A DNA stretch of 64,000 nt from the NCBI GenBank assembly GCA_000002445.1, contig CP000068.1, positions 1,408,001 through 1,472,000 of the forward strand, read 5' to 3'. A program made the translations under genes and the position numbers. The stretch's first letter is position 1. Every line of letters starts with the position of its first letter. Under the pieces are notes generated by a model. The model ran no database searches. It saw nothing but the letters and a program-made list of their open reading frames with translations, and was not told the origin of the DNA. Positions 5,836 through 41,759 of the stretch are shown in pieces. This DNA is from Trypanosoma brucei (Eukaryota).

Positions 5836-6192
<357 letters not shown>

Positions 6193-6336: not shown

Positions 6337-9300
6337 TTTTTTTATTGTGCATTTAATCTGCACACACCTTAACTGTTCAATATAGCATCGCATGGAGGAT
6401 ATTTATTTTCCTAATATGTTTCCCGTTCTCACGATCCGCCACTCGCTTCCCCTTCTGGGGCCTATCTAACGGTGTCCTGTTGAGAAAACCCATTTAGATA
6501 TTGTCTTCCACAATTTGAGGAAAAAACTCATTGGTTTTCATCTCAGTGTGTCGCATATAGTCAGTGGATGTTTAGCATGATGGTGACCTTTATCACTATT
6601 TACTCGCGGTCGGGTTATAAATGTCTTCGTATCTATAGTGGGAGCCGTAATTTCCCTCGGAATGAAGGCTGCCCTTAAGAAGTTCACAAGCTTAACACTA
6701 AAGTATAAGTAATCCTCTTTCAGACTGTCTACTCTATGCTCTGACATGAGCTTACTCAAAGCGGAAGACTGTAATAGGTGAGCCGATGTTTCTTTACATT
6801 TTTCTTTTATTCACTTCTGCTCATCAGTGTTACGTGACTGCCCATGTGCTGCTTGGAGGTGCATTGTGAGATATTGATTGTGTGCAAATACCTTCAAGCA
6901 GTGTGAACATTGGTGCTCGAGAGAGGTCTGTGGTGTGATTTCAAGGGATCGTTCTTCGCGCTTCCTCTTTACAGTGATTGCATTTTTGTGGTGTGTTCTG
7001 GTATTCCAAACTAGTGTACACCATGACATGTAGGTGTTTTTCACACCTTCTACAATCAAACTCTTTGAGAGGGTTCTCTGTGTGCCATTGAGTCTTACTC
7101 AGTTTGTGTTTAGGCTCTTTTCTTTGATCGTATATATTTCCTTTTCATCATCTGGCGTGTCACGCTCGGTCACCCTTTTTCTTTTTCTTGACATGAAGTT
7201 CAGTTTTTGTGTGTGTGACGAGCCTGAGTTAGGGAGTGCTCTATCTATGGTGCTGACATTCGATCTATTTTTGTTAGTGTTTTCTGGTTGTGTAATTGCA
7301 CTATGGGGGTTGTTCACAAAATTGACATTTTGGGTCCGCATTTTCGATGCTCACGCACTTGTGGCGTGTTAGACATGCCTTGCTTTTGAAACCCCTCTTG
7401 CATTTGTCACAACATAAAGTTTTGGCATATTGTCATCTTTATTTTTATTATCTCCACCAGTGTTTTCCTTTGCTTACAAATTTGATATCTCATTCGTTAC
7501 TTTTCTTATATTTATCGACTTTGGGTCTGAGTGAGATATCATGCCCGTGGTGTTTTGTATTCATATGGCTCAACATCCAGCTGTGACGGTACTCTTTACC
7601 GCATATCTTACATGTTTCTCTCTCCGGCAGCACGTGCTGTAGTTGTGCGCTTGGTTCCCCTTCACTCTTCTCCGGAGTGCACTTATGTCTGGTGAGCCAG
7701 GTTTTGCTTTTATATACCTGTTTGCAGCGAAGACATTTGTATGCTTGTGTTTCTTTCTGTTTTTCATCTTAGCTGCTCCTATGCTGCACTTCAGTTTGTT
7801 GTATTTATGTTTGTCTGCTTTTAAGGATGTTTCAGACGCATATGCCTGGTCAACCAGCCATACGTGGCATACTGCTTTGGGCACCATTGCCACTTGTGTA
7901 CAGTTGTTATACATTGTTCTTTTTCTTCTCGTTTCCTCTTTTGTCGCTCTATCCATACTGCTGGAGTTTTCGGAGGCTGTTGTAGCATGTGTTGTTGCAG
8001 TAGTCCCCTTTCTTTCGAATACGTTACCACATAAGTGACACTGATAGACGCCAGAATACGCCTGTGCTGCTATTGGCGCAATCTTTAATTCAGGAAGTGC
8101 ATTTTCACAAACCACCTGATGTATTTTTAACATGTGAATATCTCCAGCTTGTCATCTCTCACACATTATGTTGCAAACTGAGCATATGACAGGGTCATTC
8201 TGTCTTGTAGCTATTACCACCTTTCCTTCCTCATTTTATTACATCTTTGCAGTGTTTTGAGTAATGCAGTGATATTCTTGAGAATGTTATCCGTATGGTT
8301 TGCACACCATCTACACTCCAGTTCGTCCACTTTTCATGTGATCACCTTATACAGCAACCCAAAATGTTTTGAAGTCCCTGTTCTAAATTGAGCTAACAGT
8401 GACTCATCTTCCCTATCAGCATCCTTTCTTTTTGGATGTTGGTTTCATGTGGTTAAGTAAAGCACTGCGGTGTGTGTTTTTGTGCCGGCCTTCCGCAATG
8501 TTCCGCTGTGCCTGATTACGTAATTGGCGCATTATACATCTTAAAATGTCGGTGATTAATGCAGGGTTAGGTTTGTGGCATGTGGTTTCCTTTGTTTACG
8601 ACCTCGTTCACTTTGTTATTTCTCGGGATATGGGAATGAAAAAACTCAAACTGAAGTGACATGGCTACTCTCAGTTTCATGAAGTGTATGATCAAATTCC
8701 ATATGCATCACAGTATGGAATCTTTCACTACTGTAAGACCCGTTTTAAGTGCCATTAATAAAGGCAACAAGTCTGCGAATATTTCCACTTTCATTTTTCT
8801 ACTCTCTTTGATCATTATTACTGACTTAAGTTTCATAAGTCCTCCCTCCATGGTTGCACACTCGCCTCTGTAGCTGTACACTAACCTGTCTGCTCCTTTC
8901 TTCACTTTTACCACATTACCTTGTCTAGGGTATATTATCGCGCCGGCACCAGAGGATTTATTCAGTCCCACCCACCCATCCGTACACACTTGGTAATCGT
9001 AGTCTTTGAATCTGCGTACACTTTGCATTATGTGTCTTTTTTATCGCTGTCTGAAGAGTCAGAATGGAGACCACCTGGCGTTGCGGTGTTGAAGTATAGT
9101 CTCCTCTCCAGTTGCAATACGTTTGCCGTGTGTGGCGTCTCCGATCCATCTACTTTCTCATACAAGTATGGCACACTCAACACACGCGTGTGTATCGGAT
9201 GACTGTGTGAGAACATTTTTTCCACTGTATAGACCGTTGCCTTACCGTTCGCTTTCCTTGTTAAATAGTATTCTATTGCTCGTCTGTAAGCAACATCATC

Positions 9301-12032
9301 TATCTTGTGAAGGCGGGCCTCATTCATGGCATCTTCCCGATTCGCGTACTTTGGAATGCTCGCGATAACATGTTCCTTCTGCGCATGTACTCGGTCAAGC
9401 TTTTTTTTGTATGATGGAGAATCATTGAGCCAGCATGCAGCGGTACCATAGCATAATTTCGCCTGGATTAAGGCTAAGTAAAATGCTCGGATGCTTTCTT
9501 TACTATCCTCCTATTCAGGTGATGCAACAGCACTTAGTTTCATTAATCTCATATTTTCTGCTGTTTGTAGGGTGTGAGCATGTTTGTTTACATCCTTGTG
9601 TGGCTACATTGTCATCCCAAGGAGTCTGAGATATCTCTTCTAATGTAATCTGTACTCTCCCACCATTAGGTGTAATTAGTCTCTGTCTCTCACCACAAAG
9701 AACGTCTATTGCGTTTTTTCTGCAGACACCTTCATATAGCGCTCTGCTGACCAGCTCACTATACAATCCAATCCTGTTTGTATCGTCTACCGAATAGCTT
9801 CCATGTCAGTGTTAGAAGACACTATCGTGAGGTCGTCTGTGAGTAAGCAGTGTTGAAAGGCTGGTATGGCATTTAATTTCGCGCTGAGGAACTCTATTGC
9901 GATAATAAAAAGCAACGGCCACAACACGGAACCTTGTACAACACCACACGTGAGCTGTATTTTCTTTGAGGGGGTGTTGTTTATTAATGCTACTGCAGTC
10001 CTTCGCTACAGAAAATTAGCAACCCATGCAATGAGGCGCATGTTCACCTCATATCTTTTTAATGCATCCATTATGCACATGTGATCCACAGAGTCAAATG
10101 CCCTAGCATAATAAATGAATACCGTAGCAGTTTTTTCTCCTGCTACTCTATGAGTCATGGAGTCTGTGCGTTTCATGGTGACGTCTAATATAGACTTCCC
10201 CGGACGAAAATCAGTTTGCTTTGGTTGTAGCTTACACTCTACTGTGTCTTGTATGCGTCACGCTACATTCCTCTTCATGAGTTTACAGAGGGTGCTTTTG
10301 AGCGTGATGGGCCGGAACGATGACATACACTTGGCCGGTTTGTTGGGTTTGAGCATAGGGACAATAACGTCATGCTTCCACTTTTTCGGCATCCTGCGTC
10401 TCTGTAGGCTACAGTTGAAAAGCTTGAGGACACATTACTTGGTACGGCATCCTAATTTCCTCAGTTGTTTACGATGTATATCATCTTTACCGGAGGCAGT
10501 TCTTGAAGAGAGTTCCTTTAGTGCTGTCTCAAGTTCTGCCATCGTAACTGGTTTATAATTTACGTTTCTCGATAGGATATACTCATGAGAGAAGCATCTG
10601 GTGCCTTCGTCGACCGCTCTCTCTTTACATTTCTGCTTGCTACTTGGCTTGAAGTATACGTGTTAGAGGGTGGTCATTCACTACCAGAACTGGAGATGAC
10701 AGTGGCCTCGGTTCATATATGGATTTAACTAAATTCTAACTTTTTGTATCGATCACTGAAATCTTTGACGCATTTTCCCTCCAATGTTGTAGGGACGTTT
10801 CAGCGAGAACCTTCCTTCTCTTGTTTATAAGGTCATCCCTCTGTGCTTCTCATTTGTGCACTCCCTTATTCTCGTGTCTAGCCCAGTTAGTTGTCGTTTC
10901 CAGAGTTGTGGCGATACCTCCTCACCATTCGGTATTGTTTCCTTTGTTGCTGTGCGAATGCCTTTAGTCTCTGCTTTTTTTATGGCATCCACGTTCTTTC
11001 TTAACTTCCTTCGTTTTTTCAACATTATTATACCACACACTTTTCCAAACTTCCTCCAACTTGTTTTGTTCCAAGCATACAACGTCCTTCTTGGCTTTGT
11101 AATGGCGATCATTTCTAAACCTATGCCAATGCATACCTCAAATGTTATCCAGTAGTTGTCACTGTCTAGAGTGAGGCTTGCCTCACATCTTGTGACTTCG
11201 CAGTCTCTGTACATCGTAATGTCGGACGACGACCTAATTGCCGTTTGTGGAATTCCTCTCGTTGGTGCGCCATCATTTTGCATTTCTGACATCGTTTTGT
11301 AGACACCAGTTTACAGTGCATTCTCCAGCTGCATCATTTGGGTGAAGCGTGTCCCATAACTCATGATGGGCGTTTGTACCGCATCCCATCAACAGTGTTC
11401 TATTTGAGCTCTCAAAGATTTCAAGCGTGGATATAGTGACATTTTTCTGTGGAAAGTAAGCTGATTTTACTGTTAATATCAGATCAGCTAAAAAAAAACA
11501 GTCTTGCCGAGACTCTTTCCGGCATATCCTCCTCTTTCAGACCTTGGATGACTCCCACGCCATCTTTCACCAAAGTCGATTCCCTACCATGTGAAGAATG
11601 CTCTATCCCCATGTGTTCATATATACTGATTTTTAATGTGCAGCACTCTTCTGCTGCAAAGTGAGTCTTGTGCAATAGACAGAAAACTACCATATCCTTG
11701 TGGAGCTTCTTCTCTGAGGCGATCCGCTTACCATGGGAGAGACCCCCGGCATTCCACTGGGATCCACGAATGACGAGACCGGGATTCTGTTCCACATATC
11801 CGCTAAGAAGCATACGTATCCCAATCGATGCACTGTTGCACGTTCAGAGGAGCAGTCTAATATATTGCTTCATCCCAGAGGACTGATGCTGCTTTTTGCT
11901 TCTTTAGCTGTCGCCGAAAGCCTGTTTCCAGCCCCAATTCTGTCGTACCGGGTATGATGCGGACACTTGGCTTCCACAGACTAGACGGGTACTAGACCCT
12001 GGCATCACGATAATGTGTCCGGCGTCAGCAGG
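6337..12032 (-). mobile_element. Degenerate ingi/L1Tc-related non-LTR retroelement (DIRE-like), copy A, ~5.7 kb, non-coding (many stops)
   Basis: The high-coordinate end is homologous to the ingi/RIME 5' terminus (gacgccggacac...ccagggtctagtacc versus ingi cctggcgattccggccacc...ggggtccagtacc). Minus-strand ORF fragments resemble ingi: 11484-11813 MLLSGYVEQNPGLVIRGSQWNAGGLSHGKR (ingi MLLSGDVEENPGPSLRGMQWNCAGLSQGKR), and 10825-11292 ...SDNYWITFEVCIGIG (ingi SPDSDHHHIFFDVVVGDG). An RT region lies at ~9500-10560. C2H2 zinc-finger fragments at 6538-8133 (CHLCGNVFERKG, CSHCLKVFAHNQYLTMHLQAAHG). The low-coordinate end finishes in a short poly(A) on the minus strand (ttttttt at ~6336-6343). Confidence 0.75.
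11484..11813 (-). pseudogene. N-terminal ORF fragment of DIRE copy A with degenerate 2A-like motif (GYVEQNPGL)
   Basis: 109-aa ORF aligning to the ingi ORF N-terminus. The D(V/I)ExNPGP 2A motif is mutated. Confidence 0.6.
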
Positions 12033-12089
12033 GAAATTTATAGATTTATATAAAATTCTTAAAATCCTTAAAACTGTAAAATACTAAAA

Positions 12090-13716
12090 TTCTTCAAAGC
12101 TCATAGCAGCAGCCATGATCAAAGACAATTTCTTATTTACTAGAAAACTACAATTTGGGACCTTTGTTTTTCAGGCTCATTCTCGTTATCTTTCCCCTTT
12201 CTCCATGCACAATTTTGCTTGTCGCCTGTTTTGTCATTTTCACAAGCTTTCTTATCAGTTCCGTGTTTTGCACATCCAGTTGCAGCTGCCTTCCCTGCAG
12301 GTCCCTCTGCTTCCGCTCCTGCTCCTTCTTTAGTTGCTTGTTCGCTTGCTGCTGTCGTATTCAATTTGCACTTTTTCCATTCACCAGCTGCCTTGTCATC
12401 CCATTCAATTCCGCTGCCTGTTGTCACTGCTGTCGGTCTGTTATTGTTACACACTTTTGGTCGGTATTTGTTTTGAGCGTGCCGGCCGCAGTTGTAGTTT
12501 CGGCCAGTCCGCTTGCAGCGTATGAAATTTCCACTTCATTTGCTACCGCATAGGCGGCCTCCCTCGTTGCTTTTAGTTGGTCTTCGACGGCTTCTGCTGC
12601 TTTGAGTGCATCTTTCCTTGCCTGCAGCTGATGTTGCAGTTGCCGCAGTTTCTCTGCCCACGTTATTTGTTTGAAGCCGGTTGTTCCGGTGCCCGTATAT
12701 GCCGTATACTTTACGCATAGCCCGTTATTGGATTTACCGCCACAGTTGCCGGTGTTGTATGCCCCGAGGTCTCCGTTGCCGCTAATTATCCGGATGCTCC
12801 TTTGGAGGGTATCTAGTGGGCCTTTGATATCGGCGGCGCTTATTGTTGTTTTGTCTGTTTTAGCGCAGTAGGCTAGGACGGTTGTTACTTGCGCGGCTGT
12901 GGGGACCGAGGCAACGGTCCACTGCTCGGCCGCCATGCCATGCCCGCAAGCTTCGTCCTGGTTGTTCGAGTCCGCTTTGACGCATAAGCAGGCCAGTGTG
13001 GCCGCTACTGAGGTAGCTTTTGTTGTCGGCAGTGCATCTTGGCAGTAGCCGGCGCAGTTCGTTGCCGCGCCGCTCCCGAAGGCGTCCGAGTGGGCCACTG
13101 TTGCTCCGGTTTTGCCTGTCTTGCCGAACACCGCTGTCGCTAGCGTCTCTGTCAACGAGCTTGGTCTGGGTTTGTTTAATTTTTGCTCAAGTTGAGTCCG
13201 CGCCGATTGAAGTTTCAAAGCTATGGATTCCAGTGTTCGGATCCTTGCCAGGGCCACTGTTTTGAGTTTTTTTGATAAAGCCTCAAAGCCATGCTGCTTG
13301 ATTTCGTCTGCTTTAGTTGGGGTCTTGGCATCTTGTATTGCCTTTATCCAGCGTGCCCACGCGTCGTACCATCCGCCAGGATCACTCATACCGTGTGGAA
13401 ACTTTGTTTCCCAGGTTTTACCATCTCCCCCCTTGCTGAATTTTGCTTGCCACTCCTGTGAGCTTAAAGTCATATTTAGCGCTTTGATGTCTTCGAAAGC
13501 CTGTTTTCCTTTGTCGCTGTCCACCGGTAAGGTGGGTTTGCTTTCAGAGAGTGCGACTAGTTGGCACAGCGCGCCGAACTCCAATGCATTTGTGCCTGGT
13601 TGTACGTTGCCGGCGTCCGCTGTTGTCAAGCTTGACATCAATGCTATTAAAATGCTCGCCGTTTTCATAATGGATGTTTGACTCTTTATCTTGATCATTT
13701 TTTCTTTAAAGTTCAA
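12090..13716 (-). pseudogene. VSG: VSG pseudogene (B-type N-domain; frameshifts in C-terminal region)
   Basis: 12424-13716 ORF has signal peptide MKTASILIALMSSLTTADA and an N-domain. The C-domain (NCAWRKGKDNENEPEKQ) is in a different frame (12140-12454). A GPI-tail SFLLNKKLSLIMAAAMSF sits in a third frame at ~12095-12150. DIRE copy A starts only ~60 bp downstream of the stop. Confidence 0.75.
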
Positions 13717-14694
13717 AAAATGTAGAAAAGTGACGTGTTTTGGGAAACCGGTGTTTGTTTTTGGAGTTTAGTTTTGGATTAAACTTGGTATATTTCATTA
13801 TTTCTAATCGCTATGCCCACATTTTAGTTGGACATTGGAAGAAAGCGAGTTTTGTTTAGCTTGAGATCTTTTGCAGCTAGTAAACGATTTTAGTAAGGGT
13901 TACGGGTTAATTCCATGTGCCAGAGCCGCGCTGTGGAACAGAAGTTGTTTGTAATGGTCAGTTGGCCTGATGTATAGTGGTGGTGTCAATTGTTGCATCC
14001 ACCCTAAGGAGTAAATGTATTGCTCAAGGAAAGTTTGCTCTAGTAGCGACACGGTGTTTTTGGTTGCCGGCGCAGGCCAGCTTCGCCTTAAATATTGAGG
14101 TTAAAGGACAGTAGTGCGAATGCATTTTTTATCAGTTTCTTATCCTTAAAACTACCCTTCTTTAAACGCCTTACCACATATATTTCCATAGTCAATCTTC
14201 AATTCCATTACCTGCCGCACAAATTTAATTTTTCCCAAACTCTCTTGTTCTAAATTGCCTTTTCTCTAACTTTTTATACCAAGTAAGACTATACACAACA
14301 AACTTAGCCCTTTCCCCCATGGAATTAAGTTCCCTGGAAAATGAATAAATGAGGTATGACAAAAGTCCCCGATATGCGGAATAGAAAAGAAGTTCTCCTT
14401 ATAATCTAGCCCGATCATTTCTCTTCTCCTCAAAACAAATCTCTGTCTAATATCCTCTTCCTGAACGGCACTTCATATTAGCAGAGGCTTTGAAATACTC
14501 TGATCCGACCACCATTCCTCACTTTTTTTGAGTAATACCCTAAATGCATATTTACATTTACTAAATGCCCACTTTTTCGTTAGCACATCACCACAACTAG
14601 GATAGGATTCTCCACTGAGAGGTGATTTTAGTAAATGCGGTAACTTTTTATCCTCTTCTTTTTTCTGTGACCAACATTGAAAAAATTTTATATC

Positions 14695-15135
14695 TTAACA
14701 TGCTTTTTTGTGAATTTCCTTCTCACTAAACATCTTTTCATTTTCTGCAAAATTTTGTATAAAATATTCTACAACCTTTTCGTATTTTTCTCCGTCAAAA
14801 ACAATAACATCTGACCCATCAACAGTTATTACAATATCTTCATCACTTGCATTCTGTTTTTCTAAGAATTTCATAACCCATCTAGCTCTTTTGACATGGC
14901 TATACAAACATCCCGTTGCAATTGTAATAATTTCAACGTTTCTTAGTTTGGCACTCAATGTGAATCTACGCCATCCTTGATGTGCATAAGTTTGAACTAC
15001 AATCACGAACACTCCGTGGATTATTGGGGTTATTATGTATTGTGCCGTTTCACCCTCTTGAACAGATACTGATCTTAAATGCACAAAATACAAAGATATC
15101 GAAATTAGTAGAGTTCTCAATATAACAAATTTCAT
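14695..15135 (-). CDS. Hypothetical 146-aa type-II membrane protein with GT-A-fold-like (Rossmann beta-alpha-beta, DxD-like) N-terminal region. Possibly a truncated glycosyltransferase-like gene.
   Basis: ATG at 15133-15135. N-terminal signal-anchor KFVILRTLLISISLYFVHL. Alternating hydrophobic strands/helices ending in DEDIVITVDGSDVIVFDGEKYE. A paralogous degenerate copy at ~54280-54720 shares ~1 kb of flank. It lies in the co-transposed region between a 70-bp repeat and a VSG. Confidence 0.45.
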   Translation of the reverse strand: MKFVILRTLLISISLYFVHLRSVSVQEGETAQYIITPIIHGVFVIVVQTYAHQGWRRFTLSAKLRNVEIITIATGCLYSHVKRARWVMKFLEKQNASDEDIVITVDGSDVIVFDGEKYEKVVEYFIQNFAENEKMFSEKEIHKKAC

Positions 15136-16009
15136 GCAATAATCTGCCTTTGTGTTTGATATTGTTATAAGAAAGTAATATAAAATGTTAAGGAAAGAAG
15201 TTAGTTGTGATACTAAGGTGTTTAGTAACGTAATCAGTATTTACATATCTATGTGAGCTTTGCCCTTATATTGTTATGATTATCTGTTAAACGATGTTTT
15301 CTCATTGCTTGTAGCGTATTTTTCAAGATGAATATACCGTATTATTTTGGGAAATTACATTCACCCACAGTTATTGGTCTACACCACGTTAACTCCACCG
15401 TACATTTAATTCTTTGAATTTCCCCATGAATTACAATTGGAATTAAAGTATACATTTAAACTTTCCGCTTTGAACATACTAACATTAAAAACATTACTAT
15501 TATAACTACCCCAAAAAGCAAGTCTCGTCATTAGACTCTCATTACTGCCCTTTCATGGACTTCTGTTACTTTCCGCGCTACCACCAACTCTGCAGCATAA
15601 CCTACCAATTTCCTAGTGAAATATGAAGCGCAATATCCTCCCCTTGGTGTATCATTTATTTTGTTGCTGTGATATTGTAAATTTTGTTGTTTAATATTGA
15701 ATTTTCTTTTTTTCTTTTCATCTTCTGTCGCTGTTTCTCTGGAAACCGTAGCTACTCATTATACCCGTGCACTGGAATCTGTCTTTCCCTCATTGTCCAC
15801 TCCATCATCTCTCTGCATATGCTGATAATCATTTTCACATTTCTGTGTTTTGAAGCTGCGAATATTCCATTTCCTTCTTTTTATTTAAGGATATCCCTTT
15901 CTTATTTAATAATATCCCTATTATCTTCTATTTCTCACGTTTGTACCCCCACTCCACCTTTCCATTATCATATATGATTCTATTCTATGCATCCACTAAG
16001 TCATCATTA

Positions 16010-16330
<321 letters not shown>

Positions 16331-16508
16331 CAATTTTCTTTTAATAGTCATGAAAAATGAATTGAATAAAATAAAAACCCCTTCATTTTTCATGACTATC
16401 ACCATATTAATTTGCACCCATAGGATACTATCATACGAATTTTACTGATTTATAATTTTTTAAATACTTTTAAATTTCTCAAAATAGCAAAATTTAACAC
16501 ATTTTTTA

Positions 16509-17954
16509 TCATCGAAGAAAAAATGCAGGCAAAAGAGGGGCTTTATGAATGACAAATGAATTGTTTCCTGTGGTGTTTGTGGTTTTGGCACCTTTCCCTT
16601 CTTGGTTTGCTTTTTCTGCTGTTTTTTGGCCTTTCTCACTCAATGTGCACTTTTTTGCCTCATCTTGTGCTTCGGCGTTCCACTTGCATGGCGTTTTGCA
16701 TTCTGTGTCTTTGTCAATCTTATTGCACTTTGCTTCGGCTGCTTCTTTGGCAGTTTCCGATTTGTTTTGGGCTTGGAGTTGCCGCTTTGCTTCTAGTAAC
16801 TCTGCCTGTTGTTTTTGTTCCCTCACTTCGCGGTCGTGCAATGTTTCAGAAAGGATTTGCTTCAGGACGGCGGGCTCTTTGATTTCTTTCAGCTGCGTTC
16901 CGGCAGGCTTACCGGCTGTGTCCTTGGGTAGTGTATATTCCTCGACTAACTTCCAGTTGTTGTTTGTGAAATTTGCTGGGTCTTTACCGAACACTGTGTC
17001 TATTTGATCTTGTAGTTGCTTTTCCGTTGTTTCAGGCGTGACTCCGTAGACAATCCGGAAAGCTAGCTTGAAGTGCTGTTCAGTTTTTAGGGCTGAAATA
17101 CCTTTGTTAGTGTAGCCCGCTACTGGCGTGGTGGGGCTTGAAAATCCTTTCCAGGCTTCTGCGATGGCTGCTTTACTTCCTGCCCCCGGATTCGTCGCAA
17201 GGTCGTTTAGCTTCCGTTCGTTTGTTACAGTCGGTGTAATTTTTAATAGCCCGCCCGCCACTTCGACGCCAGTCCCAAGGCTGGTTCCGTCGACGTAGCC
17301 GTTGTTGTTGCCGAGCGTTAGCAGCTTGCACCCTGTTTCGCCGGTTGTGGTTTGTGCTGGTGCTGCTGTTTCGTATTTTTTAAGTCCATTGTCATCGATG
17401 ATGTCGTTTGCCGCTACGCCCGTTGGGTCGTCACCGATTTGTGCTTTGCAACCGCCATGAGCTTGGGCTAGCTCAGTTAAACCTTGCTTTAGGCCGGTTG
17501 CCTCGCTGCCGTCGTTAGTTGTGATGCACCCCTTGGTGTTCGCTTGCCTCGGCCCTGCCGCTATGGTTAGAAATTCTTTGATTTGACCTAGAAGTTTGGC
17601 GGCATTTTCGAGGTTATTCCAGAAAGCGGGTTCTGTTTTACCTTCTGTGTGTTTTCGGGCCGCTGCTGCTTCGAAGCTCAGGTAGGAGGCGAGGACGGCG
17701 AATCGCCGTCTTGTTTGGGCATCGGAAGTTGATTGTTGCAGAATCTGCGTACGTGTTTGTTGCAGCCCCATGTCCAGTGAAAGCTGCCTGTGTTTCTGTT
17801 GAGCTAATTTGGTACCGGCCATTCTGTCCTTGAATGCCGCATAGACATCGCAAAGGTTTTTCCATGGTGTTGTCTTTAGCGGCTGGTTGTTGGTGGTTTT
17901 TCCTGGTGGTGCCGATGCTAGGCATAGTATAAGGAGGGTTGCTGCCAGCCGCAT
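16509..17954 (-). CDS. VSG: Variant surface glycoprotein (VSG), full-length ORF 481 aa
   Basis: Signal peptide MRLAATLLILCLASAPPGKT. Large N-domain. C-domain with conserved Cys. Type-2 GPI signal ...TTNTTGNNSFVIHKAPLLPAFFLR (ends in R rather than the usual F). Confidence 0.85.
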   Translation of the reverse strand: MRLAATLLILCLASAPPGKTTNNQPLKTTPWKNLCDVYAAFKDRMAGTKLAQQKHRQLSLDMGLQQTRTQILQQSTSDAQTRRRFAVLASYLSFEAAAARKHTEGKTEPAFWNNLENAAKLLGQIKEFLTIAAGPRQANTKGCITTNDGSEATGLKQGLTELAQAHGGCKAQIGDDPTGVAANDIIDDNGLKKYETAAPAQTTTGETGCKLLTLGNNNGYVDGTSLGTGVEVAGGLLKITPTVTNERKLNDLATNPGAGSKAAIAEAWKGFSSPTTPVAGYTNKGISALKTEQHFKLAFRIVYGVTPETTEKQLQDQIDTVFGKDPANFTNNNWKLVEEYTLPKDTAGKPAGTQLKEIKEPAVLKQILSETLHDREVREQKQQAELLEAKRQLQAQNKSETAKEAAEAKCNKIDKDTECKTPCKWNAEAQDEAKKCTLSEKGQKTAEKANQEGKGAKTTNTTGNNSFVIHKAPLLPAFFLR

Positions 17955-19787
17955 TTGCCACTTAGTGCTAGTTTTCTTACGAATTTACAGCGTTTTTGGT
18001 CGTATCAAATGCTACGTATTCTTTTATTGGTTTAATATACGGAAATTGTGAGCTTCTAGCGCTGTATATCTTACTTTGTTTTTTGTTAAGCTACGCCTGC
18101 GGTGACCGCGGCGTAAATTGCTTGATTTTATTTAAACTGGAACACAGTAAAAATATAAAATACCAAAAATTTATAAAAATATGAGATAAATAAAAATTCA
18201 CAGATCTCCTGTGACTTCAGCACCACATATTCTTGATTTTACTAGGGTTAGGTTTATCTTACGCTGCGCTCATATCAGTCATAGGAGCAAAATGTGGTCT
18301 ATATTGTAAATGGCCTTGGGCTTATATTCTGATCCTGGCGACTTGTAGTGTTCCAAGATATGAAAGAGAAGTGTTTAATTCGAAAGAATTAGACTGTTGC
18401 GTATACCAGTTGTTGGAGAGTTTCTGCTTGAAATCTTCTACAAAAAAGTTGGTTCTAGCCAGTGTTTGTGTATCGTTTTATCTTGAGCGTCACATTTCTC
18501 GGAAATAAAAAAGAAGTGGCTATTCTCCTTGGCTTCTTTCTCATTAATTATGCGGTTTCCATGGGCTAGTGTCAGTCGGCGGCTACTGCCACGGCGCTGT
18601 CGCTTGTGTTTTTGAACTCCAGTTTATAACCATTTATATTACTCTAACGAATCTTTTTCCTTAGCCCATAATATTTTGTCGCTAGTTTAAAATCATAGCG
18701 ATTCCCAACTTATAAAGTACATTTAAATCCACCCAGATTTAAAATATGGGTTTCTATGCTTTTTAAACATTGGTTTTTTCCGGCGATTCACCATTATTGC
18801 ATGCCAATTCACTGATAATATAGCGCCACTAATTCTGACAGATAATAGTCTCTGGAGGTACATGCAGCGAATTCTTGTATTTTTTAGAGCGACTTCCTCT
18901 TGTAGCCATTGATTTTCTCTAATTGCACTTTTATCACCTTTTGCGAATTATTGGTTTATGCATGAAGTCGGTACTTGCGAGAACTCTCTAATGAATTATA
19001 CCAACCCTGAGTATTATCGCTGTACTGCCGCTGCGCTAGTATAAAATTGGTATAGTGTTGCTGTTATGTCCCATAGATAAAAAAGCTCCTATAACGGCTC
19101 ATATGTACCTTTTAAAGCAGTTGCGACGTTTTCATTCGTTTTATTTTGACAGAATAGTACATTAGTATTCTCATTTTTAAAATTCTGCTTCAGATAATAT
19201 TATATTTCTGCCCATAAGTGTTTGCCATCATTACTATGTGTGATGAAAAAAGTTTGGCAATACCACACAATGAGTCAGCATCTTCTTCTTTTTTCTGCCC
19301 CTGCCTCTACTTGTACATTCTTATAGCTGATAACTAGGATACGATACCAGATTAGGAACTACAGTCGCCACAATCATCATACGTTTTTGATCTTTCCACA
19401 TCTGTATGAAATACACTGCATAATTGGCTCCTTTTTTCTCGATGTATTATTTTCTCCTGTACGGTATTCTCCTGCATCCACTTGTTCAATTCCATATTCT
19501 CCCTTCTCTTTTTTATTCGCTGCTCCTATAACTGAAGATCACGTGGCGACTCTATATTTCCAGTGCGAGCGAACATAAAACTTTATGATTTTCACCTCAT
19601 TGGTCTTGTTTAAGATGACATCGTTTATAATTTCCTTGCTTGAGAGTGAGCATCATATATATTTCTCACTTTATTTTCTTCTATGAAATTCCTACCACTC
19701 GATTCTTACTATTTCACATTCACCCACACTAATTGCATCCTTGCTATTGTTTTTTCTCCTCTCGTTTTTTATTTTATTGCGGAAACC

Positions 19788-19890
19788 ATTACTCTTATTA
19801 TAATATTCGTATATACACACACTCACAACACTCTCCTATCACTATCACTATGATTATAACTATTATTACCATAATTGGTATTCATAAAAT
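19788..19890. repeat. 70-bp repeat unit
   Basis: cattactcttattataatattcgtatatacacacactcacaacactctcctatcactatc... Confidence 0.85.
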
Positions 19891-20035
19891 AATTAGGGAT
19901 ATGAAACTCTCGTAACAGCACTAACATTTCACCCTATCAAATTATACTTTACATATATGAGGAACTTTCACGCCAAAATTTTAAATATTTCAAAATTACT
20001 AATATTTTCATTTATTCGAATATGTTCATCAAAAA

Positions 20036-20051
20036 GTGCTAAAATATATCA
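20036..20051 (-). promoter_or_regulatory. VSG 3'UTR 16-mer element (1 mismatch)
   Basis: gtgctaaaatatatca is the reverse complement of TGATATATTTTAGCAC (consensus TGATATATTTTAACAC). It lies downstream of the VSG fragment 20144-21490. Confidence 0.7.
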
Positions 20052-20143
20052 AAATAAAAATTATAAAAATTATAAACTTTATATAATTAAGCAAAAATAC
20101 TTAAATGTATAAAATATTACCCAAGTCACAAAAGCAGCAGCTA

Positions 20144-21490
20144 TCAGAGAAAATTTCTTATTGAGGAGAATGCTGGAATCCTTGCAATCTGTTCCCTCCC
20201 ACTTACAATCCGTAGATTTGCAATCTTTCTCAGGTTTGCCTTTGCAGTTATCTGTTTTTGTTTCTGTTGTTTTAGTTTGTGCTGCGTGGGCGCCATTCTT
20301 TTTAACCTTTTCTGCATCTTATTTGCATCTTTTTTTAGCTTCTGTTTTATCAAAACTACATGCCGCAATTGCATGGCAAGCCGTTTCGTCTTTTATGGCG
20401 TAGCAGACGTCTTCTGTGACTGATGTATCGCATTTTAGTGGTTCTGATTGCTTTGCTAACGCTTTGACAAGCATATTTCTTGCAACCGTCCTTTTTTCTT
20501 TGTCTTTTTGTGTCTAGGTTCCTGTTAAAAATTGCTTGAGCTCTTTACGTAGGTTAGAAAATACGATCTTTTTTATAGTTATTTCTTTGGCTTCGCCGGG
20601 CATACATAAATAAGTGCCTTCAACTTTGGTGTCGTCGATCTAAGGGTCGGTGTCCTCTCCGAGGTTAGCTAGCTTTTTTAGAGTGGCGAGAGTGTTTTGC
20701 AGTGCTGACGTTACAGCGGTGTATCGGCTCTGTGTTTCCATTATTGCCGATGTCGACGGTTTTGTGTGTTGCGTGCTCCAAGCGTTATTGTTGCAAGCCG
20801 TTCCTGCTATATTGAGTAATTTGCCGGTTAGATACAGGGTAGCTTCGTTGCCGTTTTCATGCGCGAGTATTTCGTGCGTGTTTATCGTCCCACTTAAATG
20901 GCATTTACCGTTAGCATTTGTGTCAAGAGCAGGCGTCCCTCTGCCGCTTATTTCGCCCGTTAGAGCTGCCAGGCTTGGTCGTTTTGTTACCTCTGCGTCA
21001 CCGTGATTTCTCTGGATCTCGTTACCGATTACGCAGTTTGGTATGTCTTCCTTTGTTGCAACTTGGTTGTCACTGTTGGTTCGTGTCATGCAGTACGCTT
21101 CCCAGCGACAGTGTTTTCTTGGATTTGAAAAACATCTCTGTCGTTTCGCTTATTTGTCCCGCAAGTGTTGCCGTCGATAGGGCCGCTTTGATTAACCATG
21201 GAAGGTTTCCAGCGAGCGCTTGTTGTGCTTTGTCGATTTCCGAGCTGATATACATGTAGGCATTTAAGTTGTCGTCAGTATATTCAATTAGCTCTTTTTT
21301 AAACATGAGTTTTAGGTTTGTCGTCGTTGATTTTAATTTTGTCTTCGATTCTGGCATTTTTGTCACCATTGCCGTTGCAAAGTGGCCTATCTCTTTTAAA
21401 CTTTTGGCGATCCCACAGGCTAGGTTGAAGCCCGCTGCAGGCCACGATTCTTTAGTTCCACTGCTGCACTGACAATTGCGTGGAAACATA
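20144..21490 (-). pseudogene. VSG: VSG pseudogene, N-terminally truncated at the ingi insertion and frameshifted
   Basis: C-domain fragment at 20144-20374. N-domain fragments at 20640-21089 and 21070-21480. The reading frame runs directly into the ingi 5' end at ~21490. No signal peptide is found on either side of the ingi. Confidence 0.7.
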
Positions 21491-21725
21491 TGACAAATTT
21501 CCCCTGGCGATTCCGGCCACCTCAACGCGGTGCCGGGGTCCAGTACCCAGTATCATCGGGGGAAGCCAAGAGCCAGCAGCGTTCCTTTCATGGGGAACAA
21601 TGCTTTGCTCCGGCTACGGCATCATACAGCACAAGGATCAGCAGCGTCTTGCTGGGACACCGTTTTTCATTTGTCGGTCCCTGGGCACGTGCCAGCGTAT
21701 CATCAGCAGTATCATCCGCACTAAG

Positions 21726-23768
21726 ATGCTGCTGTCCGGTGATGTGGAAGAGAATCCCGGCCCGTCGTTGCGCGGAATGCAGTGGAACTGCGCCGGGCTA
21801 TCTCAAGGAAAGAGATTAGCACTCCACAAAACCCTTGTTGATGAGCGGATTGCCTTTTGTCTGTTGAGCGAGACAAGGATGACGCCTGGAGAGGCGGCTT
21901 GCTTTAGCGTTGCTGGCTACCAACATCACGGAATAGCTCGTAACTGCAAAGGAGGTGGTGTATCAATACTAGTGAGGGAGGACCCACCAGTCGAGACCGG
22001 TATGGCCGTTGTTGGTCGCATTGAACAAGTGCATGCAACAATTCACCTTGCACGTGGAACGGCGCTGACCGTCACGTCGGCATACATCCCACCAAAACAC
22101 ACCTTCACGGCAACTGACCTAGATACGCTTCTGACGACTGACGGTGCCCAGCTCATCGGTGCAGACGCTAACGCACACGCGTTGGCATGGGATCGCGCGA
22201 GCCCACCAAATACCAAGGGTGAAACCCTCACACAGTGGTGCATTGACAACCAGTTTCTGGTCTGCAACACTGGTGAGTGCACCAGGTACGCGCGCCACCA
22301 CGGGGAGTCCACCCCTGATGTGACACTGTCAAGGAATTGCACAGTGTACACGTGGACATCGCTGTATTCTCCCGATAGCGATCACCATCACATATTTTTC
22401 GACGTTGTCGTTGGAGACGGCACAGATGCACTGAGCTGCCCACGGCTTCGAAAGCCCATGTACGCATGGCTAAAAGCTGACTGGAGGAATTTCCGTCTCA
22501 AGGTTGACGAGCTCTGCAGGAAAATTGGTAGAGAGAAGAACGTCAACACCCTGGAACAGAAATTGAGCTCCGCCATCCGCATTGCGACGAAGGTCTCCGT
22601 CCCCCGTGGCTACAGAGCAACGGCACCACATTGGACACCTGAGCTCGCGAAACTCGATGAAGAGATCGCTGGATGCGGACCATCCAACCGAAGGGAAAAG
22701 TTGGTAGCCACGCGTAAGCAGATCCTGGACCGTACCACAAAGAAGAGATGGAGCACGCTATGCTCCAGACTTGCGGTGTCAGACCGCTGCAGTTGGCACA
22801 TTGTAAAGAAGGTATATGCGCCACGACCACTAACCACACCGGCGTTACTTGTTGATAACGCGGCCATCACGGACTACCGTCAAGCTGAGAGGTTCAGTAA
22901 GCTGTACTCGTCCCGCGCAAGAAGGCACCCCGACTCACACCCACCGGCACCCATAAAGACGATAGCGAGTGAGTTCAGTCCCATCACGATGGCTGAACTA
23001 CGGAGATCGATCAAACTGCTACCGTGTGGATCCGCAGCCGGACCTGATTGCTTATACAACGAGGCACTGCAACATCTCGGCAGAACAGCGCTGAATGTTG
23101 TTCTGAGGCTATTCAATGAGAGCCTACGAACGGGAGTCGTGCCGCCTGCATGGAAGACTGGCGTTATCATCCCCATCCTGAAGGCCGGAAAAAAGGCGGA
23201 GGACCTCGATTCTTACAGGCCTGTGACGCTCACGAGCTGTCTCTGCAAAGTCATGGAACGCATAATTGCCGCGAGACTTAGAGACACTGTTGAGTCCCAG
23301 CTGACGCCGCAGCAATCAGGCTTTCGCCCCGGATGCTCAACGCTCGAACAACTCCTGCACGTCCGCGCTGCCCTCTGCCGTCCCACACACCAATCTCGTA
23401 CGGGTGCTGTATTCGTTGACTACGAGAAGGCATTCGATACAGTAGACCACGACAAAATTTCGAGGGAAATGCACAGAATGAAGGTATCACCCCACATTGT
23501 GAAGTGGTGCGTATCATTTCTGAGTAACCGAACTGGCAGAGTGAGATTCAAGGAGAAGCTTTCCAGAAGCAGAACATTTGAGCGAGGAGTGCCACAAGGA
23601 ACTGTCCTTGGCCCAATCATGTTCATTATTGTCATGAACTCGTTGAGCCAGCAACGCCTTGCAGAAGTGCCGTTACTGCAGCACGGATTCTTTGCAGACG
23701 ACCTAACGCTGCTTGCGAGACACACAAAGAGAGGGATGTCATCAACCACACACTACAGTGCGGTCTAA
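21726..23768 (+). pseudogene. ingi ORF fragment 1 (2A peptide, endonuclease, reverse transcriptase), ends at TAA 23766-23768
   Basis: MLLSGDVEENPGPSLRGMQWNCAGLSQGKR...FADDLTLLARH. Continuation is in another frame from 23771. Confidence 0.85.
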
Positions 23769-23770
23769 AC

Positions 23771-35865: not shown

Positions 35866-38800
35866 CATTGTGATTCCGACCACCTCATCGTGGTGCGAGG
35901 GTCTAGTACTCCGTCCAGAAGGAATCCAACTGCCCCTATCACACACTCTCCGACAGGATTGTGACGAGAAACAGGACTTCTACCACAAGAGAAGGAGAAA
36001 GTAGCAGCATCGGCACTCTGGGGTAAAGAAATATATTAGACTGCTCCTTTGCAGGTGCGAGCGTTCCTCGATTGGGATACATAGGCTTCTACTACTACTT
36101 AGTGGAGATGTATAACAGAATACCAGTCTCATGACTCTTGGAGCCCAGTGGAATGATGGAGGTCTCTCCAAAGCAACGCGGATCGCCTTAGAGAAGAAAC
36201 TCCACAAAGATATGGTAGTCTTCTGTTTATTTTAGGAGACACACTTAGAAGCAGAAAAGTGCTGTGCATTAAAAATCAAAGGATACCAACACATGGTGTC
36301 ACATTCTCTGCATGGTGGTAAGGTATTAATTCTAGTGAGAGAACGCGTGGAAATCATCTAAGGTCCGAAGAAGGAGGGACTGCCGAAAAGTTCCTCGGAA
36401 ACACTGATGTTTTCAGCCGATTTAACGTTAAATATAAAATCAGCTTACTTTCCACAGAAAAATGTCACTATATCCACGCTTGAAATCTTTGAGAGCTCAA
36501 ATAGAACACTGTTGATGGGATACGACACAAACGCACGTCATGAGTTACGGGACCTGTTATGCTCAAATGATACTGTAGGAGAATTTTTGTGGACTGGTGT
36601 CTACAAAATGATATCAAAATTGCAAATGGTGTCAACCCAACGATAAGAATGCTTCACACGGAAGCCATGCCATTTCCAGACGTTACGATGTACAGAGACT
36701 GCAAAGCCATAAGATGGGAGGCAAGTTTCAGTCCAGATAGTGACAACTACTGGATAACGTTTGAGGTGTGCATTGTGATTGGTGTAGAAACGATCGTCAT
36801 TGCAAACCCGCGAAGTGTGTTGTATGCTTGGAACAAAGCAAATTTGTGAGAGTTTAAAAAATGTGTGGCGTAACAATGTTGAAAAAATTAAGCAATTCGA
36901 AAAAAAAACGTGGATTCCATGAATGAGGCAGTGACTAAAGTCATTCGCACAGCAGCAAAGAAAACGATAACGAAATGTAAGTGAGTATTGCTACAGTTCT
37001 GGACACAAGAACTCGCCGAACTGGACACAAAAATAAGAGAGTATACAAATGAAAAGCACAGAGATGTCCTTACATAAAAGAGAAGGAAGGTTCTCACTGA
37101 AACGTCCCTACAACGGTGGAAGGAAAATGTGCCGAAGATGTCAGTGACCGATATTAAAAGTTCGAGTTTAGTTAAGTCCATTTATGCACAGAGAACACTG
37201 ACATCTCCGGTTATGGTAGTGAATGACCACCCCCTAACACGCAGACAGCAAGATAATAAGCTAGCACATATGTATAGAAACTCGCCGACGAAAGCACCAA
37301 ATGCTCCTTCCATGAGTACACCATATCGAGTGAGCGGAAAATTCGCACCAATAACGATGACATAATTTGAGATGGGACTGAGGGAAATGTCTTAAATCAC
37401 TTCCCCCTGTAAAGATGATATACATCGTAAACAACTGAGGAAATTAGGATGCCGTACCAAGTAATGTGTCCTCAAGCTTTTCAACTGTAGCCTACAGAGA
37501 CGCAGGATCCCGAAAAAGTGGAAGCATGACGTTATTGTCCCTATGCTCAAACCCAACAAACCGGCCAAGTGTATGTCATCGTTCCGGCCCATCACACTCA
37601 AAAGCACCCTCTGTAAACTCATGAAGAGGAATGTAGCGTGACGCATACAAGACACAGTAGAGTGTAAGCTACAACCAAAGCAAACTGATTTTCGTCCGGG
37701 GAAGTCTATATTAGACGTCACCATGAAACGCACAGACTCCATGACTCATAGAGTAGCAGGAGAAAAAACTGCTACGGTATTCATTTATTATGCTAGGGCA
37801 TTTGACTCTGTGGATCACATGTGCATAATGGATGCATTAAAAAGATATGAGGTGAACATGCGCCTCATTGCATGGGTTGCTAATTTTCTGTAGCGAAGGA
37901 CTGCAGTAGCATTAATAAACAACACCCCCTCAAAGAAAATACAGCTCACGTGTGGTGTTGTACAAGGTTCCGTGTTGTGGCCGTTGCTTTTTATTATCGC
38001 AATAGAGTTCCTCAGCGCGAAATTAAATGCCATACCAGCCTTTCAACACTGCTTACTCACAGACGACCTCACGATAGTGTCTTCTAACACTGACATGGAA
38101 GCTATTCGGTAGACGATACAAACAGGATTGGATTGTATAGTGAGCTGGTCAGCAGAGCGCTATATGAAGGTGTCTGCAGAAAAAACGCAATAGACGTTCT
38201 TTGTGGTGAGAGACAGAGACTAATTACACCTAATGGTGGGAGAGTACAGATTACATTAGAAGAGATATCTCAGACTCCTTGGGATGACAATGTAGCCACA
38301 CAAGGATGTAAACAAACATGCTCACACCCTACAAACAGCAGAAAATATGAGATTAATGAAACTAAGTGCTGTTGCATCACCTGAATAGGAGGATAGTAAA
38401 GAAAGCATCCGAGCATTTTACTTAGCCTTAATCCAGGCGAAATTATGCTATGGTACCGCTGCATGCTGGCTCAATGATTCTCCATCATACAAAAAAAAGC
38501 TTGACCGAGTACATGCGCAGAAGGAACATGTTATCGCGAGCATTCCAAAGTACGCGAATCGGGAAGATGCCATGAATGAGGCCCGCCTTCACAAGATAGA
38601 TGATGTTGCTTACAGACGAGCAATAGAATACTATTTAACAAGGAAAGCGAACGGTAAGGCAACGGTCTATACAGTGGAAAAAATGTTCTCACACAGTCAT
38701 CCGATACACACGCGTGTGTTGAGTGTGCCATACTTGTATGAGAAAGTAGATGGATCGGAGACGCCACACACGGCAAACGTATTGCAACTGGAGAGGAGAC

Positions 38801-41553
38801 TATACTTCAACACCGCAACGCCAGGTGGTCTCCATTCTGACTCTTCAGACAGCGATAAAAAAGACACATAATGCAAAGTGTACGCAGATTCAAAGACTAC
38901 GATTACCAAGTGTGTACGGATGGGTGGGTGGGACTGAATAAATCCTCTGGTGCCGGCGCGATAATATACCCTAGACAAGGTAATGTGGTAAAAGTGAAGA
39001 AAGGAGCAGACAGGTTAGTGTACAGCTACAGAGGCGAGTGTGCAACCATGGAGGGAGGACTTATGAAACTTAAGTCAGTAATAATGATCAAAGAGAGTAG
39101 AAAAATGAAAGTGGAAATATTCGCAGACTTGTTGCCTTTATTAATGGCACTTAAAACGGGTCTTACAGTAGTGAAAGATTCCATACTGTGATGCATATGG
39201 AATTTGATCATACACTTCATGAAACTGAGAGTAGCCATGTCACTTCAGTTTGAGTTTTTTCATTCCCATATCCCGAGAAATAACAAAGTGAACGAGGTCG
39301 TAAACAAAGGAAACCACATGCCGCAAACCTAACCCTGCATTAATCACCGACATTTTAAGATGTATAATGCGCCAATTACGTAATCAGGCACAGCGGAACA
39401 TTGCGGAAGGCCGGCACCAAAACACACACCGCAGTGCTTTACTTAACCACATGAAACCAACATCCAAAAAGAAAGGATGCTGATAGGGAAGATGAGTCAC
39501 TGTTAGCTCAATTTAGAACAGGGACTTCAAAACATTTTGGGTTGCTGTATAAGGTGATCACATGAAAAGTGGACGAACTGGAGTGTAGATGGTGTGCAAA
39601 CCATACGGATAACATTCTCAAGAATATCACTGCATTACTCAAAACACTGCAAAGATGTAATAAAATGAGGAAGGAAAGGTGGTAATAGCTACAAGACAGA
39701 ATGACCCTGTCATATGCTCAGTTTGCAACATAATGTGTGAGAGATGACAAGCTGGAGATATTCACATGTTAAAAATACATCAGGTGGTTTGTGAAAATGC
39801 ACTTCCTGGATTAAAGATTGCGCCAATAGCAGCACAGGCGTATTCTGGCGTCTATCAGTGTCACTTATGTGGTAACGTATTCGAACGAAAGGGGACTACT
39901 GCAACAACATATGCTACAACACCTTCTCACAACTCCAGTAGTATGGAAAGAGCGACAAAAGAGGAAACGAGAAGAAAAAGAACAATGTATAACAACTGTA
40001 CACAAGTGTCAATGACGCCCCAAGCAGTATGCCACGTATAGCTTGTTGACAAGGCATATGTGTCAGAAACATCCTGAAAAGCAAACCGACGTGACACAAC
40101 AAACGGAAATACAAGATGTGAGTAGCGAAGATGAACAGGAGAAAGGAAAAGAAGCATACGAATGTCTCCGCTGCAAACAGGCGTATAAAAGGAAAACATG
40201 GCTTCACCAAACATAAGTGTAATCCTAAGCAGGGTAAAGGGAAACCAAGCGCACAACTACAGCACGTGCTGCCGGAGAGAGAAACATGTAAGATATGCGG
40301 TAAAGAGTACCGTCACAGCTGGATGTTGAGCCATATGAATACAAAACACCACGGGCATGATATCTCACTCAGACCCAAAGTCGATAAATATAAGAAAAGT
40401 AACGAATGAGATATCAAATTTGTAAGCAAAGGAAAACACTGGTGGAGATAATAAAAATAAAGATGACAATATGCCAAAACTTTATGTTGTGACAAATGCA
40501 AGAGGGGTTTCAAAAGCAAGGCATGTCTAACACGCCACAAGTGCGTGAGCATCGAAAATGCGGACCCAAAATGTCAATTTTGTGAACAACCCCCATAGTG
40601 CAATTACACAACCAGAAAACACTAACAAAAATAGATCGAATGTCAGCACCATAGATAGAGCACTCCCAAACTCAGACTCGTCACACAGAAAAAACTTGAT
40701 TTCCACGACAAGAAAGAGAAAAAGAAGAGACCGAGAATGACACTCCAGAAGGTATTAGAAAAATGTTCGATCAGAGAGAGGAGCTCAAACACAAAAGGCA
40801 GAAGGGCAAACAAAGAACCATCGTAGAGAGTTTGCATGTAAAAGGTGTGAGAACACCTGCGTGTCCTGGTGCACCCTAGCATGGAATACCAGAACACACC
40901 ACAAAAATGCAATCACTGTAAAGAGGAAGCGCGAAGAACGATCCCTTGAAATCACACCACAGACCTCTCTCGAGCACCAATGTTCACACTGCTTGAAGGT
41001 ATTTGCACACAATCAATATCTCACAATGCACCTCCAAGCAGCACATGGGCAGACACGTAACACTGATAGGCGAAATGAGCTAAAAGGAAAATGCAAAGAA
41101 ACATCGGCTCACCTATTACAGTCTCCCGCTTTGAGTAAGCTCATGTCAGAGCATAGAGTAGACAGTCTGAAAGAGGATTACTTATACTTTAGTGTTAAGC
41201 TGACGAACTTCCCAAAAGCATTCTTCTCTCCGACTGCAAATTCGGCTTCCACCATAGAAGCGAAGAAATTGATAACCCGACCGCGAGTAAATAGTGATAA
41301 AGGTTACCATCATGTTAAATATTCACTGACTACATGCGACACACTCGGATGAGAACCAGTGAGATTTTCCCCAAATAATGGACAACAATATCCAAAGAGG
41401 GCTTCCTCAACAAGACACCATTAGCCAGGCCCCACAGGAGGAAGCGAGTGGCGGATCGTGAAGATGGAAAACATATCAGCGAAGGATGTTGCCACAAGGA
41501 AAGTTTATATTGATCGATTGAGGCGCATGCAAGTTAATTTACAATGATAAAAA
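35866..41553 (+). mobile_element. Degenerate ingi/L1Tc-related retroelement (DIRE-like), copy B, inverted relative to copy A
   Basis: 5' end tgattccgaccacctcatcgtggtgcgagggtctagtac is homologous to the ingi 5' end. It is collinear with copy A without indels over >4 kb (x_A + x_B = 47899). ORFs 38871-39191, 38572-38871, 38133-38384, 37815-38033 and 40313-40552 are 100% identical in protein to their copy A counterparts. RT motifs in plus frame at ~37680-38060 (FDSVDH, GVVQGSVLWP, LTDDLT). Ends ...caatg followed by a short poly(A) ataaaaa at ~41546-41553. Confidence 0.75.
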
Positions 41554-41759
41554 TTTTAGATTTTTTATATATTTTAAAATTTTCAAAATTTTCAACAATT
41601 GACTCGTTATGAAACAATGTAAAAGCATATAAAGTTTCAGAAATTTCATAATATTCCACCAAAATAAAAAGTATTTTAGAAATTTCATAAAATTTATATA
41701 AATTCTTTATAATCCTCAAAGTCCGCAAAATACTAAACTTATAAAAGCAGTAGCCATAC

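Follow-up and report, generated by a model that had tools for sequence, protein, structure and literature searches.

A silent variant surface glycoprotein (VSG) array in Trypanosoma brucei contains two long, degenerate retroposons in opposite orientations, which have probably been partners in recent templated, non-crossover gene conversion after inserting and decaying independently. They lie in a 64,000-nucleotide stretch of contig CP000068.1 (positions 1,408,001 to 1,472,000), which was analysed as a whole and is referred to as the window; all coordinates are counted from its first letter. The two elements, copies A and B, are on the basis of their sequence TbDIREs of the extinct Tvingi/Tcoingi-like "ingi6" subclade (TbDIRE2), and not ingi proper.

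6337..12033, minus strand, 5697 bp: copy A, full-length degenerate retroposon assigned to the TbDIREs (Tvingi/Tcoingi-like subclade)
35865..41553, plus strand, 5689 bp: copy B, full-length degenerate retroposon assigned to the same family, inverted relative to A

An earlier reading of this DNA, made from the letters alone (the sequence-only reading), had placed an inverted pair here, and its coordinates prove to be off by only 1-2 bp. The 5' ends can be placed to the base, at 12033 for A (CCCTGCTGACGCC...) and at 35865 for B, and at the 3' ends there are terminal A-runs of 7 nt (A, ending at 6337) and 5 nt (B, ending at 41553). A repeat search returned five collinear inverted arms (6.5-11.3 kb versus 36.6-41.4 kb), and blastn a single high-scoring segment pair (A 12017-6408 versus B 35881-41483) with 90.3% identity over 5642 columns. 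The homology between A and B ends at the element ends. This pair is the only large repeat in the window, within which repeat and similarity searches detected no third DIRE or DIRE fragment.

The identity profile, obtained from a global alignment in 100-column bins followed by penalised-likelihood segmentation, is bimodal. A background of 72-76% identity (with one 340-bp piece at 83.5%) stands against five tracts of 99-100%:

Tract 1, A 11388-11467 (minus) / B 36437-36516 (plus): 80 bp, 100%; perfect run of 87 bp
Tract 2, the core, A 7990-10489 (minus) / B 37410-39909 (plus): 2500 bp, 99.8%, six differences; reverse transcriptase (RT) and RNaseH regions
Tract 3, A 7241-7650 (minus) / B 40249-40658 (plus): 410 bp, 100%; perfect run of 425 bp
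Tract 4, A 6842-7001 (minus) / B 40889-41048 (plus): 160 bp, 100%; perfect run of 171 bp
Tract 5, A 6692-6791 (minus) / B 41099-41198 (plus): 100 bp, 99%
Background segment, 580 bp: 72.2% identity
Background segment, 900 bp: 76.2% identity
Background segment, 340 bp: 83.5% identity
Background segment, 240 bp: 74.2% identity
Background segment, 50 bp: 76.0% identity
Background segment, 340 bp: 76.2% identity

The homogeneity of the background (72-76%) is what would be expected under one old divergence time. Substitutions account for 543 of 2413 background positions (22.5%; Jukes-Cantor distance 0.27) versus 6 of 2500 in the core (0.24%). Insertions and deletions, counted in a MAFFT alignment, are partitioned just as strictly: all 22 (1-9 bp in size, the two largest being 9 and 7 bp) are located in the background, and the tracts, 3.25 kb in total, are free of them. 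The longest perfect run between A and B, 1726 bp, is found inside the core (A 8577-10302 / B 37597-39322); when the 595 differing columns were permuted in 10,000 trials, the longest run had a mean of 63 and a maximum of 170 bp. Tract borders are sharp to within a few base pairs. At the left border of the core, for example, 34 differences across the 110 bp preceding A 10490 give way to 100 perfect bases. The six core differences are clean substitutions, not homopolymer indels, and are concentrated at the edges of the tract (P ~0.006 for so long a central gap), which suggests nested events or heteroduplex that was incompletely repaired at its ends.

These results agree with the sequence-only reading in that the copies are collinear and their identity is patchy rather than uniform. 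The near-identical core that it described is real, but extends over 2.5 kb with six differences rather than the 1.9 kb proposed, and the four high-identity tracts beyond the core had escaped it. Its claim that the copies align without gaps for more than 4 kb was mistaken, since the strictly ungapped stretch is only 2740 bp long and the constant coordinate sum of 47899 holds over ~3.4 kb only because two 1-bp indels cancel. Nor are there offsets of 3 and 21 bp, the actual indels being those of 1-9 bp given above.

The distribution of coding lesions follows the same division. Stops and frameshifts were read in a frame guided by Tvingi, the ingi element of T. vivax. In the unconverted 5' 1.5 kb copy B has 11 stops and one frame change and copy A three stops and four frame changes, and none of the 14 stops is shared. 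In the 2.5-kb core, all 13 stops are common to A and B at matching positions (sum 47899) and the frame changes are shared too; in the 410-bp tract, again, all stops are common to both. An apparently shared stop in a divergent region (B 37075) was the product of a wrong frame in A, and it is not shared in the Tvingi-guided frame. With indels and private stops and frameshifts all outside the tracts, only shared lesions within them, and a bimodal profile with sharp borders, the suggestion that the patchwork is a signature of gene conversion is well borne out. Neither lesion density nor distance to Tvingi separates A from B as the donor.

The assignment of A and B rests on several comparisons. By tblastn both copies are collinear with the Tbingi and Tvingi polyproteins, with APE, RT, RNaseH and zinc finger in order, and each is non-coding, having dozens of stops and several frame changes. 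A and B can be aligned over their whole length with a full-length Tvingi from T. vivax contig L001, and the alignment takes in the RNaseH and zinc-finger open reading frames (ORFs). Relative to the Tbingi which is also present in the window, A and B have 26-38% amino acid identity and, in short patches only, ~60% nucleotide identity, and they do not belong to the Tbingi family. The conceptual RT region of B retrieved T. vivax and T. congolense ingi proteins from a protein database (44-55% identity); over 507 residues the identity is ~50% (49-51%) to Tvingi/Tcoingi proteins versus 32-33% to the window's Tbingi. A neighbour-joining tree, constructed without L1Tc, groups copy B with Tvingi/Tcoingi and leaves Tbingi outside in 200 of 200 bootstraps. 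The earlier description of the pair as degenerate and ingi-like was therefore correct as far as it went, but these RT values do not allow them to be called ingi proper. Both copies begin with the 76-79-nt signature of the ingi clade (the Pr77 hallmark), recognised by alignment with one another and with the Tvingi and Tbingi 5' ends:

11957..12033, minus strand: 5' ingi-clade signature of copy A
35865..35941, plus strand: 5' ingi-clade signature of copy B

In the first 120 nt, 47 of 136 alignment columns are invariant among A, B, the L001 Tvingi and the window's Tbingi. Rfam models, run against the full window, produced zero matches, and thus no ribozyme model at the 5' signature. A decayed 2A-like motif can be read as SGDV*QNT in B and SGYVEQNPG in A.

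DIREs have been defined, and the target signature TTTTxxxxxA^Axxxxxxxxxxx described upstream of Tvingi, Tcoingi and the ingi6 TbDIREs, in PMC3820030. According to that study the reference genome holds eight long elements of the ingi6 subclade, all of them degenerate, and the subclade is extinct in T. brucei. Copies A and B resemble the published ingi6 or "TbDIRE2" group (Bringaud et al.; PMC3820030) in their length of ~5.7 kb (the long-element criterion being ~5 kb), their 5' signature and target motif, the APE-RT-RNaseH-zinc-finger order interrupted by stops and frameshifts, and the position of their RT beside Tvingi/Tcoingi. They differ from it in that the published description makes no mention of mosaic identity between copies, and in that their poly(A) has been cut to 7 nt (A) and 5 nt (B) and their target-site duplication is unrecognisable. 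They may be among the eight published copies or additional to them (PMC3820030).

Each copy is preceded by a target motif of its own:

12034..12055, minus strand: target-site motif upstream of A, TTTTATATAA^ATCTATAAATTT, an exact fit to TTTTxxxxxA^Axxxxxxxxxxx
35842..35864, plus strand: target-site motif upstream of B, TTTTATTAAA^AATTTTGAAATAT, a fit with 1 nt of slack

The frequency of this motif is 0.001-0.005 per position even in the AT-rich parts of the window, and the same motif precedes the Tvingi in L001. Beyond ~21 nt upstream, the flanks of A and B are unrelated. Given these separate target motifs and unrelated flanks, the two copies are best explained by independent insertions.

We propose the following history. 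A and B would first have inserted independently, in opposite orientations, into inter-cassette spacers of the silent VSG array, a step that is inferred from the endonuclease target motifs and the unrelated flanks. Both copies would then have decayed separately, as is indicated by the 22.5% divergence, the 22 indels and the private stops and frameshifts. Much later, damage in one copy would have been repaired by homologous recombination with the other copy, 24-30 kb away on the same chromosome, serving as template; the traces of this are the five tracts of 80-2500 bp with 99-100% identity, sharp borders and only shared lesions. That the tracts are discontinuous could be due to several events or, equally, to one long heteroduplex subject to short-patch mismatch repair. 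With a divergence of 0.24% the small tracts should show 0-1 differences, so that all tracts are compatible with one age, and a single patchy event cannot be told from several.

Reactions of this kind are on record in T. brucei, where recombination is impeded but not abolished by mismatches, and discontinuous patterns have been attributed to short-patch mismatch repair (PMC1904282). Break-induced VSG mosaics arise by RAD51- and BRCA2-dependent templated gene conversion with imperfect homology, which leaves the donor intact and is not crossing-over; the insertions are mostly <300 bp, with a mean of ~55 bp (PMC13233330). The A/B exchange shares with VSG mosaic conversion (PMC13233330, PMC1904282) the non-reciprocal copying of short to medium tracts under imperfect homology in a silent archive, with sharp and discontinuous junctions, and its 80-410-bp tracts are in or near the published size range. 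It differs in that both partners are silent, non-coding and unselected and form inverted repeats on one chromosome, that the 2.5-kb tract is far longer, and that dependence on RAD51 and on breaks is known for VSG mosaics and would apply here by analogy. On this comparison the process appears to be a neutral by-product of the repair pathway, templated and dependent on RAD51/BRCA2, from which mosaic VSGs arise.

Several points weigh against this history. Strand invasion at only ~77% identity is expected to be rare, and the 2.5-kb tract is much longer than the reported mosaic insertions (<300 bp, mean ~55 bp; PMC13233330). Over the ~21 nt that precede each 5' end, A and B are 67% alike, which could reflect a shared target preference or the trace of an old duplication. 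In the AT-rich flanks the best 12-bp match for a target-site duplication is 10/12 (P ~0.09), which weakens the case for independent insertion without removing it. Finally, the comparison is between this window's two copies; transfer from A to B and from B to A are both possible, and a third copy could have been donor to both.

That last alternative, in which one or more DIREs elsewhere converted both A and B, or the whole family was homogenised in concert, would make the inverted layout and the proximity of the pair irrelevant. Ectopic conversion among dispersed repeats is, in general, common. We nevertheless think a third donor unlikely, as every one of the five tracts would call for two copying events from the same segment, one into A and one into B, ending at identical borders, whereas one direct transfer per tract is simpler; moreover, only eight long elements of the subclade have been reported, all degenerate (PMC3820030). 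The history could also be turned around, A and B having been identical throughout until recently (by whole-element conversion or inverted duplication) and the 72-76% segments being later imports from divergent DIREs. A bimodal profile would result in this case as well, and the likeness of the ~21 nt upstream of the two 5' ends would be accommodated; but six separate imports, all at one divergence level, would be needed, the flanks beyond those 21 nt are unrelated, and the divergent parts have their own stops and frameshifts and a comparable distance from Tvingi, as in simple independent decay. We regard this version as distinctly improbable. Chimeric elements formed by template switching during retrotransposition are likewise an unlikely source of the tracts, which are ~100x younger than the background; the subclade, besides, has died out in T. 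brucei (PMC3820030).

An assembly or polishing artefact, in which reads of one copy were used to build or correct the other, deserves mention because a survey of trypanosomatid mobile elements names false duplications as a possible source of zero-divergence copies of extinct elements (PMC12278014). It is very unlikely here, since mis-polishing needs near-identical sequence and the tracts sit with sharp borders in DNA of 72-76% identity, five tracts would mean five coincident errors, and the six core differences are clean substitutions. That the core has been kept by selection, as a domesticated RT/RNaseH gene or a functional RNA, is suggested by its rough coincidence with the RT-RNaseH region, and is almost certainly wrong: the core has 13 in-frame stops and several frameshifts, the Rfam search gave zero matches, and selection cannot hold 1726 bp at 100% nucleotide identity beside 75% neighbours. 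Purifying selection is already refuted by the shared stops, and the sequence lacks synonymous-type variation or indeed variation of any kind.

Searches beyond the window added little. Two intact VSGs from the window, looked up as exact sequences, had no entry on record in public assemblies, and a 41-mer of the core had no exact match among metagenome contigs. The protein database in which the RT query from copy B had found T. vivax and T. congolense ingi proteins gave no match to the concatenated C-terminal ORFs of the DIREs and none at E <=1e-30 to two concatenated intact VSGs; close relatives of these VSGs from the source organism seem to be absent from it, and only paralogues would have come up at a looser threshold.

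As a side-effect, gene conversion between A and B would have left the pair with a nearly perfect inverted repeat 2.5 kb long, which is well suited to further exchange and could, in principle, also allow what lies between to be inverted. This interior consists of:

12034..35864, 23.8 kb: bracketed interior, with five VSG genes or pseudogenes, a glycosyltransferase-like fragment and one Tbingi
12140-13716, minus strand: B-type VSG, frameshifted
14380-15135: glycosyltransferase-like fragment
16509-17954, minus strand: VSG, intact
20091-21525, minus strand: VSG pseudogene
21502 to ~26830, plus strand: Tbingi, with APE, RT, RNaseH and C2H2 domains by Pfam
27355-28562, minus strand: VSG pseudogene
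31714-33171, minus strand: VSG, intact ORF

The ORF and domain content thus matches the "five VSG cassettes plus the ingi" of the sequence-only reading. Its further proposals, hairpin formation and a large-scale switch of VSG orientation and order, find no such agreement. A spacer of 23.8 kb makes an intrastrand hairpin implausible, judging from the fragility of inverted repeats in general. The minus strand carries every VSG, whether within the pair or beyond it, so no net inversion has been fixed in this haplotype, and no recombinase or switch machinery was seen among the larger interior ORFs. Among the ORFs scanned in and around the interior there was no dedicated recombinase, only VSG domains, the RT, APE and RNaseH of the ingi and a weak glycosyltransferase-like match, several ORFs being without any match. 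We know of no orientation-dependent role for silent VSGs. As these serve as copy templates (PMC13233330), their orientation is without known effect. It is possible that a rare crossover in the 2.5-kb core could invert the block. Signs of a past inversion were sought by pairing target-site duplications (A 5' with A 3' versus A 5' with B 3'), the best match in these AT-rich flanks being the 10/12 given above. A plus-strand motif after B (41565-41580) resembles the 16-mer of the VSG 3' untranslated region (UTR) with three mismatches, and was set aside since ~1.2 such matches are expected by chance.

A stronger version, which we consider unlikely, is that the 2.5-kb inverted repeat is an active recombination hotspot, in which case populations would be found with both orientations of the 24-kb five-VSG block, or with isochromosome-type breakage products. 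Under the same idea, single-strand read-through could yield DIRE double-stranded RNA and small interfering RNAs (siRNAs), by analogy with the inverted-repeat siRNA loci known in T. brucei (PMC4721609). Were the hotspot real, subtelomere reshuffling would have a structural driver in dead retroposons arranged as inverted pairs.

Comparable retroposon arrangements are known from other settings. The head-to-head pair at T. brucei centromeres (chromosome 4; PMC1868937) is likewise an inverted DIRE pair on a megabase chromosome, but what it encloses is a 3.5-kb array of AT-rich 149-bp repeats, situated between directional gene clusters, whereas A and B flank 24 kb of VSG cassettes with no such repeat array present. 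The direct and inverted SIDER repeats of Leishmania, as the work of Ubeda et al. (2014) is cited in PMC11739655, are also extinct ingi-clade copies whose dispersed homology serves RAD51-type recombination, with inverted repeats as possible substrates there as here. As summarised there, SIDER repeats drive gene rearrangement and amplification, and the product is an extrachromosomal amplicon which is selectable under stress (PMC11739655). Compared with that summary, A and B show sequence transfer only, with no sign of amplification or rearrangement.

In the searchable literature no description was found of conversion between two DIREs inside a VSG array. The components are already known, namely the DIRE family, centromeric inverted DIRE pairs, segmental conversion in the VSG archive and retroposon-mediated rearrangement in Leishmania, and the A/B pair exemplifies a process that is already familiar. 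The conversion itself is without demonstrated function, and nothing here implies a new one. The interest of the pair is that no selection acts on DIREs, and their mosaic can be read as neutral evidence of recombination in a silent VSG array: partners ~77% identical and 24-30 kb apart appear to have exchanged tracts of 80-2500 bp without crossing over, in a reaction of the mosaic-VSG type, seen in this case apart from immune selection. For the zero-divergence copies of extinct retroposons noted in trypanosomatid surveys (PMC12278014), which might otherwise be put down to segmental duplication or assembly error, conversion is a third possible explanation. A long perfect inverted repeat built in this way could destabilise or invert part of the antigen archive.

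A number of smaller observations concern the setting of the two elements. Both DIREs are in equivalent places in the array, with a VSG 3' end on one side and the next 70-bp-repeat region on the other. The VSGs abutting the DIRE ends (12140-13716 and 41731-43314) have no 3'-UTR 16-mer within three mismatches (in 12034-12140 and 41554-41731), although the same search found it 10 times elsewhere on the minus strand, that of the VSGs; it may be that the DIREs went into the 3' UTRs of these two VSGs or displaced those UTRs. The 70-bp-repeat regions upstream of VSG cassettes are marked by (TAT)n/(ATA)n runs of 21-61 units at 5935-6118, 16058-16236 and 2545-2607, and the tracts 5880-6129 and 16003-16250 are direct repeats with 90% identity.

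The Tbingi of the interior (21502 to ~26830, plus strand) is nearly full-length, its coding region being divided among three ORFs in different frames. Its insertion point is right at the 5' end of the VSG pseudogene 20091-21525 (minus strand), and its orientation is opposite to that of the VSGs. The non-VSG fragment at 14380-15135 has a direct copy at 53989-54708 (77-79% identical), both lying between VSG cassettes. One ORF in it (14695-15135) has a weak, sub-threshold Pfam match to the glycosyltransferase domain GT_PLOD (E = 2.6e-4), and the fragment may be an array-associated glycosyltransferase pseudogene.

Lastly, an interstitial telomere repeat of ~16 TTAGGG copies (minus-strand reading) is found inside the array at 62240-62337. 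It lies ~140 nt downstream of a perfect VSG 3'-UTR 16-mer (TGATATATTTTAACAC, 62475-62490) and ~200 nt downstream of the stop of the VSG at 62534-63787 (minus strand). This VSG appears to have been telomeric once and to have reached its internal position by capture or healing.

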